A program made the translations under genes and the position numbers. DNA of 64,000 bases from Escherichia coli (GTDB lineage Bacteria; Pseudomonadota; Gammaproteobacteria; Enterobacterales; Enterobacteriaceae). The notes under the pieces were generated by a model. That model was given only the letters and a program-made list of their open reading frames with translations. It was not told the DNA's origin and made no database searches. This document shows, in pieces, positions 13,760 through 62,566 of the stretch (within the stretch, counting starts at the first letter, position 1; each line of letters starts with the position of its first letter). The stretch lies in assembly GCF_045037415.1 (NCBI RefSeq), contig NZ_CP173438.1, one strand, 5' to 3'.

Positions 13760-13768
13760 ATTTACATT

Positions 13769-13801
13769 TCTGCATGGTTATGCATAACCATGCAGATTTT
13801 C
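13769..13801 (+). terminator. rho-independent terminator after rhtA
   Basis: hairpin tctgcatggttatgcataaccatgcaga followed by tttt. Confidence 0.8.
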
Positions 13802-13884
13802 TCGCTACTTTTCCTCTACACCGTCTTTATATATCGAATTATGCAAAAGCATATTTATTCCGAAAATTCCTGGCGAGCAAATAA

Positions 13885-14562
<678 letters not shown>

Positions 14563-29770: not shown

Positions 29771-29968
29771 ATGATGCGTAAAGCGCTTCGCGCTAAATTC
29801 GAACAACATGCAGAACTGCGTACACTCTTGCTGGCAACCGCGTCCGCAAAACTGGTTGAGCATACGCAAAATGATGCTTACTGGGGAGATGGCGGTAATG
29901 GTCAGGGCAAGAATCGCCTGGGGTACCTTTTAATGGCGTTGCGCGGACAATTGGCTGCGGAGAAGTAA
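29771..29968 (+). pseudogene. ybiA: C-terminal remnant of N-glycosidase YbiA (DUF1768)
   Basis: only the last ~65 codons (MRKALRAKFEQHAELR...WGDGG...NRLGYLL...) show YbiA/DUF1768 similarity; the upstream part of ORF 29663-29968 reads through the dinG promoter and LexA box, leaving no room for the ~95-aa N-terminal domain. Confidence 0.5.
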
Positions 29969-38698: not shown

Positions 38699-39936
38699 AA
38701 TGTAGCTGGCGCGAAGGCAATATGATCCAGTTGCTGGAAAACGGCGAGCAATATTATCCCGCGGTGTTTAAGGCGATTGGCGAGGCGCAAGAACGCATCA
38801 TTCTTGAAACGTTTATCTGGTTTGAGGATGACGTCGGCAAACAGCTGCATGCGGCGCTATTGGCAGCAGCGCAACGCGGGGTAAAAGCGGAAGTCTTGCT
38901 GGATGGCTACGGTTCGCCGGATCTCAGCGATGAATTTGTCAATGAACTGACGGCAGCTGGCGTGGTGTTCCGCTACTACGATCCCCGCCCTCGCCTTTTT
39001 GGTATGCGCACCAATGTGTTTCGCCGGATGCATCGCAAAATTGTGGTGATCGACGCGCGTATCGCCTTTATTGGCGGGCTGAATTACTCCGCCGAGCATA
39101 TGTCCAGCTACGGCCCGGAGGCCAAACAGGATTACGCGGTACGCCTCGAAGGGCCGATTGTCGAAGATATTCTCCAGTTTGAGCTGGAAAACCTGCCAGG
39201 ACAAAGCACGGCGCGACGCTGGTGGCGACGCCATCATAAAGCGGAAGAGAACCGCCAGCCGGGAGAAGCGCAGGTATTGCTGGTCTGGCGCGATAACGAA
39301 GAACATCGCGATGATATCGAACGTCACTATCTGAAAATGCTCACTCAGGCGCGGCGGGAAGTGATTATCGCCAACGCCTACTTCTTCCCCGGCTATCGTT
39401 TTTTACACGCCTTGCGTAAAGCGGCACGACGCGGGGTGCGGATCAAACTGATCATTCAGGGCGAACCGGATATGCCGATTGTCAGAGTCGGCGCGCGTTT
39501 GCTGTATAACTATCTGGTTAAAGGTGGCGTTCAGGTGTTTGAGTACCGCCGCCGCCCGCTCCACGGCAAAGTGGCATTGATGGACGATCACTGGGCGACA
39601 GTAGGGTCCAGTAATCTCGATCCGCTCAGTTTGTCACTGAATCTCGAAGCAAATGTCATCATCCACGATCGTAATTTTAACCAGACGCTGCGCGATAATC
39701 TGAACGGCATTATCGCCGCAGATTGTCAGCAGGTCGATGAGACCATGCTGCCGAAACGCACCTGGTGGAACCTGACTAAAAGCGTGCTGGCGTTCCACTT
39801 TCTACGCCACTTCCCGGCGCTGGTGGGCTGGCTTCCGGCGCACACGCCACGTCTGGCGCAGGTTGATCCCCCCGCACAACCGACAATGGAAACGCAGGAT
39901 CGGGTAGAAACTGAAAACACGGGGGTAAAACCCTGA
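38695..39936 (+). CDS. clsB: cardiolipin synthase B (phospholipase D family)
   Basis: 413 aa; two HxK(x4)D motifs ([17 protein letters not shown]); start overlaps the ybhP stop. Confidence 0.92.
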
Positions 39937-40892
39937 TGAGTAAATCACACCCGCGCTGGCGCTTAGCAAAGAAGATCCTCACCTGGCTGTTTTTTATCGC
40001 GGTGATTGTGTTGTTGGTGGTCTACGCCAAAAAAGTGGACTGGGAAGAGGTCTGGAAGGTCATCCGAGACTACAATCGCGTTGCACTGCTCAGTGCGGTC
40101 GGGCTGGTGGTCGTCAGCTATCTGATTTACGGTTGCTACGACCTGCTCGCCCGTTTCTACTGCGGTCACAAACTGGCGAAGCGCCAGGTGATGCTGGTGT
40201 CGTTTATCTGCTACGCCTTCAACCTGACACTCAGTACCTGGGTCGGCGGCATTGGTATGCGCTATCGTTTGTACTCCCGACTGGGGTTACCGGGCAGCAC
40301 TATTACGCGGATTTTTTCGCTCAGTATTACCACCAACTGGCTAGGCTATATTTTGCTAGCGGGGGTTATCTTTACCGCAGGCGTGGTGGAGTTGCCGGAT
40401 CACTGGTATGTCGATCAAACTACGCTGCGTATTCTCGGCATTGGCTTACTGATGATTATCGCGGTTTATTTGTGGTTTTGCGCTTTCGCGAAGCACCGCC
40501 ATATGACCATCAAAGGGCAAAAGCTGGTGCTGCCTTCGTGGAAATTCGCCCTCGCCCAGATGCTGATTTCCAGCGTTAACTGGATGGTAATGGGAGCGAT
40601 TATCTGGCTGTTACTTGGTCAAAGCGTAAGCTATTTCTTTGTACTGGGCGTGTTGCTGGTTAGTAGTATTGCTGGCGTCATCGTGCATATTCCGGCGGGA
40701 ATTGGTGTGCTGGAAGCGGTGTTTATCGCGCTACTGGCTGGGGAGCATACCTCCAAAGGCACAATTATCGCCGCCCTACTTGCTTACCGTGTGCTGTATT
40801 ACTTTATCCCACTGCTGCTGGCGCTGATCTGTTACCTGTTGCTGGAAAGCCAGGCGAAGAAGCTACGGGCGAAAAATGAAGCGGCGATGTGA
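39936..40892 (+). CDS. ybhN: inner membrane protein (LPG-synthase-like TM domain)
   Basis: 318 aa multi-pass; start overlaps the clsB stop. Confidence 0.88.
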   Translation: MSKSHPRWRLAKKILTWLFFIAVIVLLVVYAKKVDWEEVWKVIRDYNRVALLSAVGLVVVSYLIYGCYDLLARFYCGHKLAKRQVMLVSFICYAFNLTLSTWVGGIGMRYRLYSRLGLPGSTITRIFSLSITTNWLGYILLAGVIFTAGVVELPDHWYVDQTTLRILGIGLLMIIAVYLWFCAFAKHRHMTIKGQKLVLPSWKFALAQMLISSVNWMVMGAIIWLLLGQSVSYFFVLGVLLVSSIAGVIVHIPAGIGVLEAVFIALLAGEHTSKGTIIAALLAYRVLYYFIPLLLALICYLLLESQAKKLRAKNEAAM

Positions 40893-40927
40893 AGTATAGT
40901 TAAGTTCTTTAGTATGTGCATTTACGG

Positions 40928-41641
40928 CTAATGAAAAAACCGCGTATGCCTTTGCCAGACAAGCGTTATAGCTATAGCAGCAAGAATCCCAAAGAAACCG
41001 ATAAAATAGTAATAGAGTGTTAATGCACCTATAAAAGCACAACGAACCGGACTCCATAATTCTTCACTATGGCTTTTTCCTGTCAGTTCAAGGAGCTTAT
41101 TTCGTCCATGCGAGATAATGCCTGACCATAAGACAATCATTAAGCAACTTATTACCCAAATGGGTCGTTCACTCATTAATGTGGCATTCACGATGATTAC
41201 CAGGGCCAACCCTGTCAACGTCATCATAATGATAAAACGATGAGAACCAGGATCAAATTTAAACAATAGACCTGCCAGCATACTGATTAAAAACATCGAT
41301 CCCGCAGTGCTGAACACGACGATAATGGCAGATACAGGCGCTAAACTCGCAACGACAATCGCCACCAAAGAGATTAAAAACAAATATATTACGCCCGCGA
41401 TGGCGGTATTTATCTTGTTGATATCTTTACTTAAGCCATACATAGAAAGTAATAATAATCCTATAGCAACATACATTTGCGGTGAATCATATTTTGTTGC
41501 CGTAATTTCGAGATACTTAGCGCCCCAGGCCAGCCCTGCGGTTGCCACCAAACCCAAAGCGGTAATGAGCCATATGCCGTTTAATATCCTGGCTTCGTGC
41601 TGAAAATCTAATTTATTGCTATTTTGCGAGTATGATTCCAT
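40928..41641 (-). CDS. ybhM: inner membrane protein YbhM (7 predicted TM helices)
   Basis: 237 aa from MESYSQNSNK...; highly hydrophobic; visibly AT-rich relative to neighbours. Confidence 0.85.
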   Translation of the reverse strand: MESYSQNSNKLDFQHEARILNGIWLITALGLVATAGLAWGAKYLEITATKYDSPQMYVAIGLLLLSMYGLSKDINKINTAIAGVIYLFLISLVAIVVASLAPVSAIIVVFSTAGSMFLISMLAGLLFKFDPGSHRFIIMMTLTGLALVIIVNATLMSERPIWVISCLMIVLWSGIISHGRNKLLELTGKSHSEELWSPVRCAFIGALTLYYYFIGFFGILAAIAITLVWQRHTRFFH

Positions 41642-41798
41642 TCTTTTAGTTGTCCTTAGAAAAAACATTAATATTCACCATCAATAAATTTAAAACCACG
41701 CATACAAAATACTTTTGCATTTATGGATACAGAAAACGCTTCCGCTCGTCCATAAGGCATATTTTATACCTGGTACTTGTTAAGTGTCGTTTTTAATA

Positions 41799-41828
41799 AG
41801 AAAAAAAATCCCGACACATGGCCGGGAT
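41799..41828 (-). terminator. rho-independent terminator after ybhL
   Basis: minus-strand hairpin atcccggccatgtgtcgggat followed by uuuuuuuu. Confidence 0.85.
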
Positions 41829-41846
41829 ATTGATGATGAAAAAGAA

Positions 41847-42551
41847 TTAACGGCGGTTGCCGAAGATCCGCAGCAACATCAGGAACAGGTTGATGAAGTC
41901 CAGATACAAGGTTAACGCGCCAAGAATGGAATATTTGCGCAGGTTCGACGTGTCGCGAGTATCAATCTGCTCACCCATATTTTTCAGTTTCTGGGTGTCA
42001 TACGCCGTCAATCCGACAAAGACAATCACGCCGATGTAGGTGACTGCCCACATCAATGCTTCGCTTTTCAGCCAGAAGTTAACCAGCGATGCCAGCACAA
42101 TGCCGATTAACGCCATAAACAGCATATTGCCAAAGCCGCTTAGATCGCGCTTCGTGGTGTAACCGTACAGGCTCATTGCGCCGAACATCCCGGCAGTAAC
42201 GACGAAAGTACTGGCGATAGAAGCAGCGGTATAGACAATGAAAATACTGGAAAGCGTAAGACCCGTCAGCGCCGAATAAAGCATAAAGAGCATCGTCGTT
42301 ACACCTGCGCTCAGCTTTTGAATCATCGCTGATAACACAATAACCAATGCTAATTGCGCGATGATCAGACCGATTAAAAAGACACGGTTAGTAAACAACA
42401 GCTCCATCACGGCCGCGGAATTAGCCGCATACCAGGCAACAAATGCTGTCAGCAACAAGCCAACGGTCATCCAGCCATAGACTTGCGCCATATAAGTTTG
42501 CAAGCCAGCCCGGGGTTGTACGATTGAATCAGAACGTGGGAATCTGTCCAT
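41847..42551 (-). CDS. ybhL: Bax inhibitor-1/YccA-family inner membrane protein
   Basis: 234 aa; 7-TM BI-1 family. Confidence 0.88.
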   Translation of the reverse strand: MDRFPRSDSIVQPRAGLQTYMAQVYGWMTVGLLLTAFVAWYAANSAAVMELLFTNRVFLIGLIIAQLALVIVLSAMIQKLSAGVTTMLFMLYSALTGLTLSSIFIVYTAASIASTFVVTAGMFGAMSLYGYTTKRDLSGFGNMLFMALIGIVLASLVNFWLKSEALMWAVTYIGVIVFVGLTAYDTQKLKNMGEQIDTRDTSNLRKYSILGALTLYLDFINLFLMLLRIFGNRR

Positions 42552-44401: not shown

Positions 44402-45391
44402 TTAGCCACCAATGTACGATAAGTTTTGCGTAATACCGGTGTTATTTTGATGCAGGAAATGGGTCTGTTTTTTCTCCCGCAGCGCCGCTGAAATACGCGC
44501 TTCCAGCGCCTGTTGCTGGGTATCGTTTTCCAGCAGATCGCGCAGGTTAACGCCGCCTTCACCAAACAGGCAGAGATGGAGTTTACCAATGGAGGAAACG
44601 CGCAGGCGGTTGCAAGTGGCGCAGAAATCTTTTTCATACGGCATGATAAGGCCAATCTCTCCGGCGTAATCCGGATGACAAAAGACTTGCGCGGGACCGT
44701 CGCTGCGTTGACGTAATTGGTGGATCCAGCCGCGACGCAGTAACTCGTCACGCAGAACCTGACCAGAGATGTGATGCTTACGGAAGAGCTCGCTGCCCTC
44801 GCCCGTTTCCATCAGTTCGATGAAACGCAGCTGGATGGGACGATGCTGGATCCAGTTCAGAAAGGTGTCGAGCTGGTGATGATTCACATCACGCATCAGC
44901 ACGGTATTGACTTTGACCTTCTCAAAACCGGCCTCAAATGCAGCATCGATTCCTGCCATGACCTGATTGAATTTATCCTGCCCGGTAATGGCATGAAACT
45001 GGCGAGCGTCAAGGCTATCAACGCTGACGTTGATGCCAGTAAGTCCAGCATCGCGCCAGTTCGCCACATCGCGCTCCAGACGGTAACCATTGGTGGTGAC
45101 CGCTATCTGGCGAATAGCGTCGTTTTCTCGCACAGCGGCGATGATATCGGTAAAGTCGCGGCGTAAAGATGGCTCACCACCTGTCAGACGGACTTTTTCG
45201 GTGCCCAGACTGGCGAAGGCGCGCGTAACCCGGCGAATTTCATCGACGGTCAGGAAGCCTTTATTGGTGACGCCGCTCGGCTTGTAACCATCCGGCAGGC
45301 AGTAGGTGCAACGAAAGTTACACACATCAGTAATCGACAGGCGCAAGTAGTAAAACTTACGCGCAAATGCATCAGTCAGTTGTGAAGCCAT
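44402..45391 (-). CDS. moaA: GTP 3',8-cyclase (radical SAM)
   Basis: 329 aa from [31 protein letters not shown]; radical-SAM CxxxCxxC. Confidence 0.93.
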
Positions 45392-45530
45392 GTACACCTT
45401 TCCAGATACGGGAGGCGAAGTCATTTCTTCCTTCGCCCTGGTGGCAATCTTTACGAGCATTGTCACGGCCAAAGCACCGTATCAGTTGACCCAGGTGCAG
45501 AGGCTAGAGTGTTTAGTGGTTAAGCCGATA
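45392..45530 (-). ncRNA. Moco riboswitch region in the moaA 5' leader
   Basis: structured leader directly upstream of moaA with hairpin ggcgaaggaagaaatgacttcgcc and RBS ggaaagg; assignment by position and recalled knowledge, not a covariance-model fit. Confidence 0.5.
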
Positions 45531-45727: not shown

Positions 45728-46696
<969 letters not shown>

Positions 46697-46697
46697 C

Positions 46698-46726
46698 ACG
46701 AAGCCGGAAGAATATTCCGGCTTCGT
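46698..46726. terminator. bidirectional terminator hairpin between ybhK and uvrB
   Basis: acgaagccggaagaatattccggcttcgt. Confidence 0.7.
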
Positions 46727-46733
46727 CATCTTG

Positions 46734-48755
46734 TCACGACGCGGCAATAAACAGCTCACGCAACTGATGCAACTGGTCACGAATTTGCGCCGCTTCTTCG
46801 AACTCCAGATTCTGCGCGTGTTGCATCATCAACCCTTCCAGTTCATGGATCTTCTGCTGTAACGCTTTAGGCGACATATCCATCGGCACATTATCCGGCT
46901 CAACAATCGGGCGCGATTTTCCTCTGCCCTTCGCTTTGGTTTTGGCAATGTTCTGCCCCAGCGCCAGGATATCGACCACTTTCTTGTTCAAGCCTTGCGG
47001 CGTAATGCCGTGTTCCTCGTTGTACTTCTGCTGTTTCTCGCGGCGACGTTCGGTTTCGCCAATCGCTTTCGCCATTGATGGGGTGATCTTATCGCCGTAG
47101 AGAATCGCTTTACCGTTAACGTTACGTGCCGCACGACCAATGGTCTGGATCAACGAACGTTCGGAACGCAGGAAGCCTTCTTTGTCAGCGTCGAGGATCG
47201 CCACCAGCGAAACCTCCGGCATATCCAGACCTTCGCGCAGTAAGTTGATCCCTACCAATACGTCGAACTCACCCAGACGCAAGTCGCGGATAATCTCCAT
47301 ACGTTCGACGGTATCGATATCTGAGTGAAGATAACGCACGCGCTCACCGTGTTCTTCGAGATATTCAGTGAGATCTTCCGCCATCCGCTTGGTCAGAGTT
47401 GTAACCAGTACGCGTTCGTTAATTGCCGCTCGCTGACGAATCTCCGATAGAAGATCATCCACCTGTGTCGCTACCGGACGCACTTCAATAATCGGGTCGA
47501 GTAAGCCTGTTGGACGCACAACCTGATCCACCACATCGCCACCGGATTTTTCCAGCTCGTAATTACCCGGCGTCGCCGAAACATAGATGGTTTGCGGCGC
47601 TAATGCTTCGAACTCTTCAAATTTCAGCGGGCGGTTATCCAGCGCTGATGGCAAGCGGAAGCCGTACTCCACCAGTGTCTCTTTACGCGCCCGGTCACCG
47701 CGATACATGCCGCCAATTTGTGGAATGGTGACGTGAGATTCATCGACCACCAGCAGCCCATCAGCAGGCAGGTAATCAAACAGCGTCGGCGGTGGCTCAC
47801 CCGGTCCACGACCGGAGAGGAAGCGCGAGTAGTTCTCAATCCCCGAACAGTAGCCTAGCTCGTTCATCATCTCCAGATCAAACTGGGTACGCTGGGTCAG
47901 CCGCTGCTCTTCCAGCAGTTTGTTGTTTTCCAATAGCACTTTACGTCTGGCGGCCAGCTCTTCTTTGATCTCCTCCATCGCCTGGACGATGCGCTCGCGT
48001 GGCGTGACGTAGTGCGTTTTCGGGTAGATGGTAAAACGTGGAATAGTGGAAACAATCTGCCCGGTCAGCGGGTCAAATAACGACAATCGTTCCACCTCCT
48101 CGTCAAACAGCTCCACGCGAAGTGCAATGTCATCCGATTCTGCCGGGAAGATATCAATCACCTCGCCACGAACACGGAAAGTACCACGCTGGAATGCTTG
48201 ATCATTACGGGCATATTGCAGCTCCGCCAGTCGGCGCAGGATCGCGCGCTGATCGATAATCATACCGACCGTGAGATGGAGCATCATCTTGAGATATAAA
48301 TCAGGATCGCCCAGACCATAAATCGCGGAAACAGACGCCACCACAACCACATCACGTCGCTCCAGCATCGCTTTGGTGGCGGATAAACGCATCTGTTCGA
48401 TATGTTCGTTTACCGAGGCATCTTTCTCAATAAAGGTGTCGGAACTCGGTACATAGGCCTCCGGCTGATAGTAGTCGTAGTAGGAGACGAAATATTCCAC
48501 CGCGTTTTCTGGGAAGAATTCTTTCATTTCGCCATACAGCTGGGCCGCCAGCGTTTTGTTGGGCGCAAGTACCATGGTTGGGCGCTGAAGGTCAGCAATG
48601 ACATTGGCAATGGTGAAGGTTTTCCCGGAGCCAGTCACGCCAAGTAACGTCTGGTGCGCCAGGCCATCTTCCAGCCCCTCTTCGAGACGTCGAATCGCCT
48701 CCGGCTGATCGCCAGAAGGTTTAAAAGCGGAATTCAGTTTGAACGGTTTACTCAT
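46734..48755 (-). CDS. uvrB: excinuclease ABC subunit B
   Basis: 673 aa; Walker [10 protein letters not shown]; helicase motifs; C-terminal UVR domain. Confidence 0.96.
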
Positions 48756-58867: not shown

Positions 58868-60301
58868 TTACAGCATGTTCCAGCCGATCAGCATATTCCA
58901 CCACCACACGCCGAGGGTGATATGCACCAGGAAGGTTAATATCGTCAGTACCGCACCGACCAACCACCAGGATTTAATATCGTTGTAACCCACGCCAAAG
59001 ATGACCGGACCTGCCGCGCCGCCATAGTGAGTAACCATGCCGCCATAGGAGTTAGAGAACAACAGTGCCAGCGCGGTTAACATTAACGGTGCGCCGGAGA
59101 CATTCGCCAGCATGGCAAATACCGGTAACATGGCAACGATATAGGCACTACCAGAAGCGAAGAAATAACGCACGATGATGCTGAGGAAAATAATAACGAA
59201 GAAAGCAACGTTCCCGTGACCATCAAATGCCAGGTTATTTTTAAAGACTTCAGCTAACCATTCGAAGAATTTAACTTTCGATAATAAGGAGCTTAAGCCG
59301 ATAATACCGCCGTACCAGATTAAGGTATTCCAGCCGCCTTTATTTTTAACCACGTCTTCCCAGGTAACGATACCCAGCAGCAGCATAGTTGCCATAACAA
59401 CGATTGCCACGGTGGATTCATCAACCCCCAGAGACTTACTGAAAATCCAGCCCAGCAGCGCCAGCACAAAGACACCGAGCAGCATTTTTTCGCGGATTTT
59501 CATCGGTCCCAGTTCGGCAAGGCCCGCTTTAGCGATGGTTTTGTTATCCACCTTCTTAATTTCTGGTGGATACATGGTGTAAATCACCAGCGGGGTGACC
59601 AGCAGCATAATGATGCCCGGCAATCCGGCGGCTAACGCCCATCCACCCCAGCTAATTTGCAGGTGCAGAATGTCGTTGATCATTTTCAGCGCCAGAATGT
59701 TCCCCGCCATTGCGGTAAAGAACATATAGCTGGTGGTTTTGGTGACCATGTAAATGGACATCATCAGGTAATGTCCAACACGACGCGGACTTTTTTCCGG
59801 TTCTGATCCCAAAGCCACTGCCACGCTGTTGATGATCGGTAACACGATGCCGCCCGCACGCGCGGTGTTAGACGGTGTTGCCGGAGCCAGTACCAGATCG
59901 AGAAATACCGTAACGTAACCCAGACCCAGGGTAGTGCTACCAATTTTACCAATCAGCAGATAGGCAATACGTTTACCTAAGCCTGTGGTTACAAACGCGG
60001 CGCTTAAAGTAAACGCAGAAAACACCAGCCAGGTGGTACCGGAAGAGTAACCGCTTAATACAGCGGTGGTTTTAAATTCCCCACCTGATAAGTTACCCAC
60101 CACTACCATCGATGCGGCGACGGCAATTAACAGTACGACAGGTTCCGGGAAAGGCTTGATAACCAGCCCCACAATGGCCGCCAGGTAAATACCAAAAAGC
60201 ACCCACGCCAGTTCGCTTAATCCTGCCGGAGCTGGCATAAAGCCAATAATACATGGGATTGCTAATATCAGAATTAGCTTCCATAACGATTTCTTATTCA
60301 T
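58868..60301 (-). CDS. ybhI: DASS-family (divalent anion:Na+ symporter) transporter
   Basis: 477 aa; multi-pass membrane protein of CitT/SLC13 type. Confidence 0.88.
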   Translation of the reverse strand: MNKKSLWKLILILAIPCIIGFMPAPAGLSELAWVLFGIYLAAIVGLVIKPFPEPVVLLIAVAASMVVVGNLSGGEFKTTAVLSGYSSGTTWLVFSAFTLSAAFVTTGLGKRIAYLLIGKIGSTTLGLGYVTVFLDLVLAPATPSNTARAGGIVLPIINSVAVALGSEPEKSPRRVGHYLMMSIYMVTKTTSYMFFTAMAGNILALKMINDILHLQISWGGWALAAGLPGIIMLLVTPLVIYTMYPPEIKKVDNKTIAKAGLAELGPMKIREKMLLGVFVLALLGWIFSKSLGVDESTVAIVVMATMLLLGIVTWEDVVKNKGGWNTLIWYGGIIGLSSLLSKVKFFEWLAEVFKNNLAFDGHGNVAFFVIIFLSIIVRYFFASGSAYIVAMLPVFAMLANVSGAPLMLTALALLFSNSYGGMVTHYGGAAGPVIFGVGYNDIKSWWLVGAVLTILTFLVHITLGVWWWNMLIGWNML

Positions 60302-60376
60302 TTAATATCCTGTTCTTTCTGTATGACTCATACAGAATTCCTTTATTGATTGTCATTATCACGACAACAAAATTTT

Positions 60377-61429
60377 TCAGGGAAGATAAACTTCACCGGA
60401 AAATATTTTTCTGGTCGTCCGAATAACAGATGCGCGTAACGTCGTGGCATCCTGACCTTCATTACTTAAATGAACGTCGAGCGCACCACTGGGGTGTTCA
60501 ATATTGATATTGCCGTATCCTACAGAAGGGACGATTTGTCGGGTGACGGTACCTTCCAATGCACAACTACTGGAAATAGCAATAGCACCGGTTATCGCCA
60601 AAGCGCGATGGCAAGAATGCGGCATAAAATAACGCACATTAATTGCCCCGCCTTTCTGCGCTGGAGAAATAAGTACAGGTTTAGGGATAACCATATTACT
60701 GACATCGCCTAAACCCATTGCTTTACCCGCTTGTAGACGGATAGATTCAATGCGGGCTAATAATGCGTTGTCGGCATCCAGCTCTGCCGGTAATTCATAG
60801 CCTGTTTTTCCCAGATATTCAGCAGGAATAATGACAACTGGCATCGCCATATCGATACAGGTCACCGGGACATCGTCAAAATAATCAATCTGATTATCCG
60901 TCGGGAAGACTTTTCCGGTTTTCGTTCCGGCGGCATTCAGGAAAGTGAGCGCAACCGGTGCGGCAGTACCCGGTACGCCGTCAATTCTGGCGCTACCCTC
61001 GTACTCGACAACACCATTTGGCGTTTGCACATCAGCTTCGATGAACGTACCCGTATTGACGTTGCGGATACGTACGCGGGTAACTGGCGAAGTCGCTGCA
61101 ATCAAACCATTTTCAATGGCGAATGCCCCAACGCCAGACAGCATATTGCCGCAGTTAGGCGTGGTATCGACACGTTGCTCATGGACGATAACTTGAGCAA
61201 ACAGATAATCGACATCTGCACGCGGATCGCTGGAGCGGCTAATAATGGCGACTTTACTGGTCAGCGGATTACCGCCGCCAATACCGTCAATTTCCAGATC
61301 GTTACCGGAACCCATAATTGCCATCAATATTTTATCGCGCTGCGTTTGATCTTCGGGTAGATGTTCCGCTAACAGGAACGCGCCCCTCGAGGTTCCACCT
61401 CGCATCATCACGCAGGGTATTTTTTTCAT
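60377..61429 (-). CDS. ybhH: PrpF/AcnD-accessory-like isomerase
   Basis: 350 aa; PrpF-family diaminopimelate-epimerase-like fold. Confidence 0.85.
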   Translation of the reverse strand: MKKIPCVMMRGGTSRGAFLLAEHLPEDQTQRDKILMAIMGSGNDLEIDGIGGGNPLTSKVAIISRSSDPRADVDYLFAQVIVHEQRVDTTPNCGNMLSGVGAFAIENGLIAATSPVTRVRIRNVNTGTFIEADVQTPNGVVEYEGSARIDGVPGTAAPVALTFLNAAGTKTGKVFPTDNQIDYFDDVPVTCIDMAMPVVIIPAEYLGKTGYELPAELDADNALLARIESIRLQAGKAMGLGDVSNMVIPKPVLISPAQKGGAINVRYFMPHSCHRALAITGAIAISSSCALEGTVTRQIVPSVGYGNINIEHPSGALDVHLSNEGQDATTLRASVIRTTRKIFSGEVYLP

Positions 61430-61612
61430 AATAATGCCCTCAATTTAAAAACATAACTTATTGCGATATGGTTACATTAAGGGCAAAGCATCTCTAATGA
61501 CTTTAGCTCAACGATTAATAACATTTTTTCATTAATTTAAGTTGGCTAAATGCAGTTAAAATTTTTAACTGCCAGTCACCCAAAATCGTCGCTTCCATTT
61601 TCCGGAGTAATA

Positions 61613-62566
61613 ATGAAGCATGAATTATCAAGTATGAAGGCATTTGTCATACTGGCAGAGTCCAGTTCATTTAACAATGCTGCTAAATTACTCAATATTA
61701 CGCAACCTGCATTAACGCGAAGAATAAAAAAGATGGAGGAAGATTTACACATTCAACTATTTGAGCGTACAACTCGCAAGGTTACGTTAACAAAAGCAGG
61801 AAAAAGGTTGCTCCCGGAGGCGCGGGAATTAATAAAAAAATTCGATGAAACGCTTTTTAGTATTCGCGACATGAATGCTTATCATCGAGGTATGGTGACG
61901 TTAGCGTGTATTCCGACCGCGGTATTTTATTTTTTACCATTGGCAATCGGTAAATTTAATGAGCTGTATCCCAATATTAAAGTGCGGATTCTGGAACAAG
62001 GCACGAATAATTGCATGGAATCGGTGCTGTGTAACGAATCAGACTTTGGCATAAACATGAACAACGTCACAAATTCATCCATTGATTTTACCCCACTGGT
62101 CAACGAGCCGTTCGTGCTGGCCTGTCGGCGTGACCATCCATTGGCCAAAAAGCAGCTTGTAGAATGGCAGGAGTTAGTGGGTTACAAAATGATTGGCGTA
62201 CGCTCCTCCAGCGGCAACCGACTGTTGATAGAACAACAGCTAGCCGACAAGCCCTGGAAGCTGGACTGGTTTTACGAAGTGCGTCATCTTTCGACGTCAT
62301 TAGGGCTGGTGGAGGCGGGACTGGGGATTTCGGCGCTTCCTGGTCTGGCAATGCCCCATGCGCCCTATTCTTCGATTATTGGTATCCCACTGGTGGAACC
62401 CGTTATACGTCGGACATTGGGGATTATTCGCCGCAAAGATGCCGTGCTTTCTCCGGCAGCTGAACGCTTTTTTGCCTTGCTGATTAATTTGTGGACTGAC
62501 GATAAAGACAATTTGTGGACCAATATCGTCGAACGCCAGAGACATGCGTTACAGGAGATAGGTTAA
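61613..62566 (+). CDS. ybhD: LysR-type transcriptional regulator
   Basis: 317 aa from MKHELSSMKAFVIL...; N-terminal LysR HTH; divergent from ybhH. Confidence 0.85.
   Translation: MKHELSSMKAFVILAESSSFNNAAKLLNITQPALTRRIKKMEEDLHIQLFERTTRKVTLTKAGKRLLPEARELIKKFDETLFSIRDMNAYHRGMVTLACIPTAVFYFLPLAIGKFNELYPNIKVRILEQGTNNCMESVLCNESDFGINMNNVTNSSIDFTPLVNEPFVLACRRDHPLAKKQLVEWQELVGYKMIGVRSSSGNRLLIEQQLADKPWKLDWFYEVRHLSTSLGLVEAGLGISALPGLAMPHAPYSSIIGIPLVEPVIRRTLGIIRRKDAVLSPAAERFFALLINLWTDDKDNLWTNIVERQRHALQEIG

Follow-up and report, generated by a model that had tools for sequence, protein, structure and literature searches.

The question raised by this locus is what kind of DNA ybhM is and how it came to be so AT-rich. 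ybhM is a small gene of Escherichia coli between ybhL and ybhN, studied here in the window, that is, the whole 64-kb stretch of E. coli chromosome that was analyzed. Around ybhM the window has only 4 differences in 40,954 positions from NZ_CP124324.1. The first-pass annotation had read the AT-richness of ybhM and its flanks as a possible sign of older horizontal acquisition or of H-NS-bound DNA. We consider it probable, at roughly three chances in four, that ybhM represents, in single-gene form, a small, variable, H-NS-silenced accessory islet that sits between the terminator hairpin of ybhL and the stop of ybhN.

The AT-rich tract and the empty site

The stretch 40893–41846 has 38.6% GC against the window mean of 51.9%. 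Sliding windows of the same 954-bp length have a standard deviation of 3.6, the lowest of them (38.7%) begins at 40891, and none falls to the value of 40893–41846. The spacers on either side of ybhM are at 31% and 32% GC. The first-pass annotation thus rightly saw ybhM and its flanks as AT-richer than ybhN, ybhL and the moa genes, and the long AT run that it quoted, taataataatcctatagcaacatacatttgc, lies at 41450–41480. Its further statement that ybhM and ybhN are convergent with 35 bp between their stops is exact, with the last base of ybhN at 40892 and the first base of the ybhM stop at 40928.

Per-gene statistics over the 56 window genes of at least 80 aa place ybhM at the extreme. It is the lowest in overall GC (40.8%, z −4.6), in GC at first (GC1, 41.9%, z −3.3) and third (GC3, 41.1%, z −3.3) codon positions and in codon adaptation index (CAI, 0.157 with Sharp-Li weights), of which the ranking alone is trustworthy. 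It is the highest in rare codons (8.5%), and its effective number of codons (Nc) of 57.5 means almost no codon bias. GC at second positions (GC2) is normal at 39.4% (z −0.5). Hence both the sliding-window GC and the codon usage put ybhM outside the range of its neighbors.

The YbhM sequence encoded with the synonymous usage of the window is expected to have 49.3% GC, the fifth lowest of the 56. The same calculation gives 50.5% for YbhL and 50.1% for YbhN, its membrane-protein neighbors, whose actual GC is 48.9% and 52.1% with GC3 of 61.4% and 66%. After this control for amino-acid composition, ybhM keeps a residual of −8.5 GC points (z −3.9) overall and −19 points at GC3, so its deficit is mostly synonymous. 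Of the 12 points missing, synonymous choice makes up about 8.5, and amino-acid composition accounts for about one third. The deficit thus includes the synonymous sites, as in H-NS-silenced xenogeneic DNA.

A second AT-rich patch lies at 60300–62566 and contains the next-lowest 954-bp windows after ybhM, with a minimum of 40.7%. There, ybhH has a GC3 of 44.7%, ybhD has 45.3% GC, a CAI of 0.19 and 8.2% rare codons, and the ybhI/ybhH and ybhH/ybhD spacers are at 28–32% GC.

We fetched 80 Enterobacterales loci around ybhL (numbered with L below) and mapped ybhL, ybhM, ybhN, clsB and moaE in every one of them. Most of the loci that retain ybhN have it convergent with ybhL, at a distance of only 50–95 bp with a hairpin in the gap. 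Such an empty site is found in Citrobacter, Enterobacter, Trabulsiella, Lelliottia, Buttiauxella, Atlantibacter, Pantoea and Erwinia. It is found also within Escherichia, in the lineage of L005, which is labeled E. coli and is 92–93% identical to the window over 10 kb.

L005 keeps the hairpin of the window (ATCCCGGCC...TCGGGAT), and its ybhN stop follows 7 nt later. In blastn, the L005 locus breaks from the window at 40898 and 41806, and the window has a surplus of 907 bp. These breakpoints bound the AT-rich tract (0.386 GC, where the two 1-kb flanks are at 0.518 and 0.495), so the compositional outlier and the indel are one object. With the site empty in most of the 80 loci and in L005, the islet is patchy in distribution, with an empty site in relatives. 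The proposal of horizontal acquisition gains by this, since the inserted segment coincides exactly with the AT-rich tract, and its "older" part fits the finding of ybhM in E. coli, Shigella and E. albertii.

The features of the locus are as follows, with window coordinates and strands.

39936..40892, plus strand: ybhN, the conserved convergent neighbor and other border of the hotspot described below.
40893..40927: ybhN/ybhM stop-codon spacer between the convergent genes, 35 bp, 31% GC.
40899..41805: AT-rich accessory islet, 907 bp, 38.6% GC, set by the blastn breakpoints against the empty-site Escherichia locus L005.
40928..41641, minus strand: ybhM coding sequence, 237 aa, a divergent inner-membrane protein of the Bax-inhibitor-1 (BI-1)/YccA family by RefSeq annotation, Pfam PF01027 and a predicted AlphaFold2 (AF2) model.
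41642..41846, minus strand: ybhL-ybhM spacer, 205 bp, 32% GC, with the ybhM promoter and a published H-NS site.
41763..41790, minus strand: ybhM sigma-70 promoter ACGACA-16-TATAAA, a published RpoD promoter (PMC3946193) found in the window.
41798..41828, minus strand: ybhL intrinsic terminator, ATCCCGGCC-ATGTG-TCGGGAT and then a T run, the conserved hairpin after which the islet starts.
41847..42551, minus strand: ybhL, the canonical, highly conserved BI-1 paralogue upstream of ybhM (Pfam 212 bits), used as the control gene.

Beyond ybhL, the RefSeq annotation has moaEDCBA. In the spacers no Rfam match was found by the noncoding RNA search, which returned only one sub-threshold chance match. 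A 98-aa open reading frame (ORF) runs antisense to ybhM at 41307–41603 on the plus strand and is open also in at least two other alleles that are about 8% divergent (L086 6813–7109 and L088 5302–5598). It is probably a by-product of the codon composition.

In the empty-site genomes a single hairpin terminates both convergent genes, and in the window the islet parts ybhN from that hairpin. No terminator-like hairpin was detected by a consensus scan of the 35-bp ybhN/ybhM spacer. Therefore, ybhN transcription could read through into ybhM in the antisense direction.

H-NS, expression and evolution within E. coli

The first-pass suggestion of H-NS-bound DNA is borne out by three kinds of published data. 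First, genomic SELEX (systematic evolution of ligands by exponential enrichment) places an H-NS site in the ybhL>ybhM spacer (Shimada et al. 2014, PMC3946193 Table 3). The same spacer is among the RpoD-holoenzyme sites, with the constitutive promoter ACGACA-16-TATAAA (PMC3946193), which is present in the window at 41790–41763. Our consensus scan of the spacer finds an overlapping variant of it at 41790–41761.

Second, ybhL is scored as H-NS-bound in an analysis of three E. coli strains based on chromatin affinity precipitation sequencing (ChAP-seq; Higashi et al. 2016, PMC4720273 S2 Table). Third, ybhM (b0787) has a log fold change of −2.56 (P 2.8e-22) in the wild type relative to the hns-stpA mutant (Srinivasan et al. 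2015, PMC4288151, hs-wt), that is, about 6-fold lower expression in the wild type. In that comparison ybhL changes in the opposite direction to ybhM, and the moa genes b0781–b0785 are 2.5–6-fold higher in the mutant (PMC4288151). The ybhM transcript is also up 4.6–5.1-fold in O157 on lettuce at day 5 (PMC6891304).

As a side observation, the rhtA-dps spacer of the window (13760–14058) is at 32.8% GC, and its neighbor, the rhtA/ompX spacer, is marked as an H-NS site as well (Shimada et al. 2014, PMC3946193).

Low GC, H-NS binding in the promoter spacer, derepression in hns-stpA and patchiness all liken ybhM to the xenogeneic genes silenced by H-NS and StpA. So does its fast protein change, as H-NS-bound genes in general undergo faster non-synonymous change than unbound neighbors (PMC4720273). 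However, the ybhM islet differs from such genes in being very small (0.9 kb, one gene) and without mobility genes. What it carries is a paralogue of the core gene next to it, and not one of the usual virulence or phage functions, and its GC is at equilibrium instead of being ameliorated.

In comparison with K-12, ybhM has a synonymous divergence (dS) of 0.258 and a non-synonymous divergence (dN) of 0.030, giving a ratio (omega) of 0.115. Fifteen neighbor genes have dS of 0.07–0.19 and omega of 0–0.04 except for the 81-aa moaD (0.13), so that dN is about 10 times and dS about twice those of the neighbors. The YbhL protein is identical in K-12. Across E. coli, ybhM alleles differ by 6–9% against 0.1–3% for ybhL, and most allele pairs have omega of 0.12–0.3, with others reaching 0.25–0.5.

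We surveyed 5426 complete E. coli genomes, 5404 of which hold some of the ybhM region. The window allele is matched at 99% identity or more in 991 genomes and at 90–95% in 4170, which reveals a deep allelic split. The query span is matched over at least 80% in 4040 of the 5426, and ybhM is annotated as a gene in all full-coverage matches listed without an insertion sequence (IS). A 324-bp in-frame deletion of 108 codons, joining two GGxTGGCC repeats and leaving 129 aa, occurs in 545 of the 5426 genomes (10%). IS1 is inserted in ybhM in some genomes and has replaced it in others, and IS5 interrupts it in strain RR1.

Among 13 allele clusters, 106 of the 237 YbhM residues vary. The variation is concentrated in the N-terminus and residues 121–160, and the sixth and seventh transmembrane helices (TM6 and TM7) are conserved. 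Polarized substitutions in ybhM are balanced, with 37 strong-to-weak and 36 weak-to-strong changes, and the equilibrium GC calculated from them is 0.41 (actual GC 0.417), an estimate from the small counts of 73 polarized changes. In the flanks the equilibrium is 0.517 and the actual GC 0.535. As equilibrium and actual GC nearly coincide, the low GC of ybhM is kept by the local substitution regime and is not the fading trace of an import.

Our preferred reading joins these results in the following way. The islet would have been acquired, and Escherichia lineages would still swap it by homologous recombination in the conserved flanks. Its AT-rich DNA binds H-NS and StpA in the ybhL-ybhM spacer and so silences the sigma-70 promoter, as the published K-12 data show. 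Low expression and dispensability may then leave only weak selection on codon usage and protein. Such weak selection may explain the observed pattern of synonymous sites at an AT-biased equilibrium of about 41% GC, raised dN and dS, deletions and IS insertions. The product is predicted by modeling to be a seven-helix membrane protein of the BI-1 family and belongs to a fast-diverging subfamily, found only in Enterobacteriaceae, without the aspartate pair described below.

The ybhL/ybhN junction and the YbhM protein

A word-indexed search of 5.8 billion proteins finds no close YbhM homologue outside Escherichia and Shigella. An exhaustive HMMER search of 1.84 billion representatives gives one full-length YbhM cluster and nine clusters at 25–35% identity. 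Seven of the nine have source names, namely E. coli or cryptic Escherichia, Salmonella, Kluyvera georgiana, Pseudocitrobacter and Superficieibacter, and the other two come from Logan/ENA assemblies. A Phytobacter relative was found through the synteny loci and a profile search. A profile of the subfamily alignment, searched against the 5.8-billion-protein set, added only Phytobacter and E. coli variants. By these sequence matches the YbhM-like subfamily appears, among its named members, to be found only in Enterobacteriaceae.

The copy number of YbhM-like genes varies from 0 to 3 per E. coli strain. In 793 of the 5426 genomes a second YbhM-like gene, 30% identical, lies between ybhL and ybhM. 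That the one-gene layout is a simple deletion derivative of this two-gene one is not supported, as their spacers share only the terminator hairpin. In E. coli L088 (3642–7302) three YbhM-like genes, a DUF3969 gene and a 73-aa ORF form a five-gene islet. The ybhL of L088 has a dS of 0.52 versus E. coli, against 0.1–0.2 for moa, ybhN, clsB and ybhP, which indicates that a recombination tract imported ybhL together with the islet.

Other genera also carry cargo at the junction. In Salmonella it is a YbhM-like gene followed by two paralogous membrane proteins. Other strains have a diverged copy of this three-gene module downstream of guaA, where DUF1266 and DjlB-like genes adjoin it; the island there includes a TsiV-family gene in one of these strains. 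The Salmonella modules at the two sites, taken together, are those of L089 6001–7908 and L093–L095 7001–8900. A single YbhM-like copy follows ybhL in Kluyvera, Pseudocitrobacter and Phytobacter, and a metagenomic contig has 11 same-strand small genes there, at least four of them YbhM-like. The Superficieibacter copy is elsewhere in the genome, 3 kb from vgrG.

Unrelated cargo occurs at the same junction. Siccibacter L042 (5821–6416) has a pair of 80 and 118 aa, of toxin-antitoxin size, and Pluralibacter L034 (5703–9105) has about 3.4 kb including a 488-aa ORF. In E. albertii NBRC 107761 (L006 6063–7724) a 553-aa sulfatase-family membrane protein lies beside a ybhM remnant.

Chromosomal integration hotspots between conserved core genes are a known concept in E. 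coli. The ybhL-hairpin-ybhN junction is alike in being mostly empty and in receiving lineage-specific cargo, including YbhM-like arrays, the DUF3969 module, the sulfatase-family gene, a toxin-antitoxin-sized pair and a catalase-sized ORF. It differs in having no integrase or tRNA, and the exchange appears to go through flanking homology.

YbhM matches Pfam PF01027 (Bax1-I) with 64.0 bits over the cut-off of 34.1, weakly next to the 212 bits of YbhL. The alignment covers model positions 3–205 of 207 (203 of the 207 positions) and YbhM residues 19–222; the Pfam scan used a 246-aa ORF, in which residues 28–231 were matched, rather than the annotated 237-aa YbhM. By this family hidden Markov model, YbhM is a member of the Bax inhibitor-1/TMBIM/YccA family. 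Its BLASTP identity to YbhL is 25% over 151 residues (E 2e-11).

The AF2 model of YbhM has a predicted local distance difference test score (pLDDT) of 87.3 and a predicted TM score (pTM) of 0.83. Its seven predicted helices (5–43, 54–70, 79–100, 103–127, 134–154, 159–192 and 198–235) are the number expected of a BI-1 family protein. In its near-full PF01027 match, its length of some 235 aa and its seven predicted helices, YbhM is like Bacillus subtilis YetJ (PDB 4PGR) and E. coli YbhL and YccA.

Canonical members of the family keep a pair of aspartates and YbhM has lost both. The aspartates of AYDxxK in TM6 and LYLDF in TM7 are kept in all six canonical sequences aligned, whereas in YbhM the canonical AYD is SHG and LYLDF is LYYYF, so that glycine and tyrosine replace the pair. 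Each aspartate survives in one of the 14 aligned YbhM-like members, and five of the 14 have glutamate at the TM6 position. In YetJ the pair is the pH-sensor and Ca2+-leak site. As both motif aspartates are lost, YbhM is by its sequence unlikely to be a YetJ-type pH-gated Ca2+ leak.

Rival readings and significance

Several observations weigh against an acquired islet. No tRNA lies at 30–52 kb in the window, no integrase is associated with the islet and no flanking direct repeats are found at its borders. The phage search gave no match to ybhM, and the plasmid collection yielded no true plasmid copy, so that no transfer vehicle is seen. The matches in that collection are one 55.7-kb non-mobilizable record and records of 0.7–4.9 Mb, none predicted to be mobilizable, and the latter look like chromosome pieces. 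A 21-nt imperfect repeat flanks the ybhM coding sequence (40917 and 41716) and looks like chance. Without integrase, tRNA target, direct repeats and phage or plasmid carriage, the islet was rejected as a classical genomic island.

The silencing part of the islet reading has its own adverse points. ybhM is missing from the ChAP-seq ortholog table (PMC4720273), and the H-NS data as a whole are published tables for K-12 or reference strains other than the window strain. The small number of polarized changes behind the equilibrium estimate is a separate point against the islet reading.

Further points of this kind lead to the alternative of a native origin without transfer, in which an old tandem duplicate of ybhL drifted AT-rich under relaxed selection and was lost from most lineages. 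A gene of the same Pfam family adjoins ybhL directly downstream on the same strand in five genera (Escherichia, Salmonella, Kluyvera georgiana, Pseudocitrobacter and Phytobacter). Of six canonical BI-1 proteins tested, E. coli YbhL gets the top score from the subfamily profile (107 bits), and it ranks first among them for five of the 14 members. In Escherichia, Salmonella and Pseudocitrobacter the YbhM-like genes have a GC far under that of their flanks, but it is host-like in Phytobacter (59.7% against 58.2%) and Kluyvera (54.0% against 57.3%). The equilibrium GC of ybhM, without amelioration, is also in its favor.

Nevertheless, a native origin would need many independent clean losses, each restoring the simple hairpin spacer, even within Escherichia. 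It sits badly with the imported tract in L088 and with genes that move, as seen in the guaA-linked Salmonella module and the Superficieibacter copy. The unrelated cargo at the same junction in other genera also speaks against it. We therefore judge it unlikely. The YbhL score, the adjacency in five genera and the host-like GC in two together make it possible that the subfamily was born locally, rather than from a foreign donor: it may descend from a ybhL duplicate within Enterobacteriaceae and have spread later through flanking homology. Such an ultimate origin is compatible with the islet explanation.

Another reading concerns function. YbhM-like proteins could be a new class of membrane immunity or decoy proteins on a BI-1 scaffold, kept as polymorphic orphan arrays after ybhL against pore-forming or ionophoric toxins such as type VI secretion system (T6SS) pore-formers, contact-dependent inhibition (CDI) toxins and bacteriocins. 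The variable tandem arrays of divergent paralogues at one hotspot, as in the E. coli strains with second copies and the metagenomic contig, are in its favor, and so are the deeply divergent ybhM alleles in E. coli-labeled genomes. In Salmonella, the two paralogous proteins after the YbhM-like gene match NCBIfam NF053812, "immunity protein Sip4" (E 3e-5 and 8e-8). Sip4 is an inner-membrane immunity protein that neutralizes the pore-forming T6SS effector Ssp4 (PMC12669606).

The arrays resemble the orphan immunity arrays of polymorphic toxin systems (T6SS, CDI), of which Sip4 of Serratia marcescens is an example, as tandem, same-strand, small, divergent membrane proteins with presence/absence polymorphism, and in Salmonella the Sip4-like genes lie directly downstream of the YbhM-like gene. 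By analogy, this neighborhood, the TsiV-family gene in the guaA-linked island and the nearby vgrG in Superficieibacter suggest an orphan-immunity role for YbhM. Unlike such arrays, YbhM has no cognate toxin and resembles no catalogued immunity family.

The adverse evidence is considerable. Neither the window nor any E. coli locus seen has a toxin gene beside ybhM. YbhM has no match in PADLOC or NCBIfam, so that a defense or immunity annotation was rejected. The Sip4 matches are far under the model cut-off of 240 bits, and homology between the YbhM-like and Sip4-like profiles was also rejected, with an hhalign probability of 0.4%. As a candidate membrane toxin, the 864-aa protein beside vgrG in Superficieibacter was dropped, since it matches no family, lacks hydrophobic segments and differs in GC. 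Omega below 1 gives no overall positive selection. We hold the immunity reading to be a long shot, a little less probable than the native origin. If it were true, the copy-number variation, the deep alleles and the Sip4-like neighbors would be signatures of an arms race.

Less probable again, at a little under one chance in ten, is that ybhM is a decaying pseudogene or non-functional ORF whose AT-richness and fast evolution reflect lost function. The 108-codon deletion in 10% of genomes, the IS1 and IS5 insertions, the IS1-mediated replacement, the loss of both canonical aspartates, the omega of up to 0.5 between some alleles and the variability of 106 of the 237 residues would all agree with decay. 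However, at least 80% of the span is matched in most genomes, and the gene is annotated in all of the listed IS-free matches of full coverage. Omega for most pairs is well under 1. The Pfam match over 203 of 207 positions, the confident seven-helix model and the conserved TM6–TM7 point the same way, as does the induction in O157 on lettuce (PMC6891304).

That a hydrophobic protein rich in Phe, Ile and Leu codons simply looks AT-rich is hardly credible in spite of its low expected GC, being refuted by the normal GC2, by the residuals of the expected-GC calculation, by YbhL and YbhN, which have similar expected GC and yet much higher real GC and GC3 (61% and 66%), and by the non-coding flanks, which are AT-rich too.

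Three observations stand apart from the islet. A molybdenum-cofactor riboswitch is annotated upstream of moaA at 45379–45523 on the minus strand. K-12 C600 has about 154 extra bp at window 46601–46800 (the yvcK/uvrB spacer being 46697–46733), annotated as a frameshifted hypothetical fragment and absent from the window strain. A NADAR-family pseudogene fragment with its N-terminus missing lies at 29771–29968 in the 536-bp dinG-rhlE spacer.

In summary, a small, H-NS-silenced, AT-rich accessory islet is a well-known kind of feature, and the ybhM islet offers a clean worked example that is AT-rich, H-NS-silenced, weakly constrained and often lost. Its low GC at equilibrium bears on the amelioration arguments by which transfers are dated. 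A polymorphic array of a BI-1 offshoot without the aspartate pair appears to be undescribed. The roles of bacterial BI-1 paralogues are still poorly understood, and the ybhL/ybhN hotspot with its fast-diverging BI-1 offshoot is a testable lead on a y-gene and on these paralogues.

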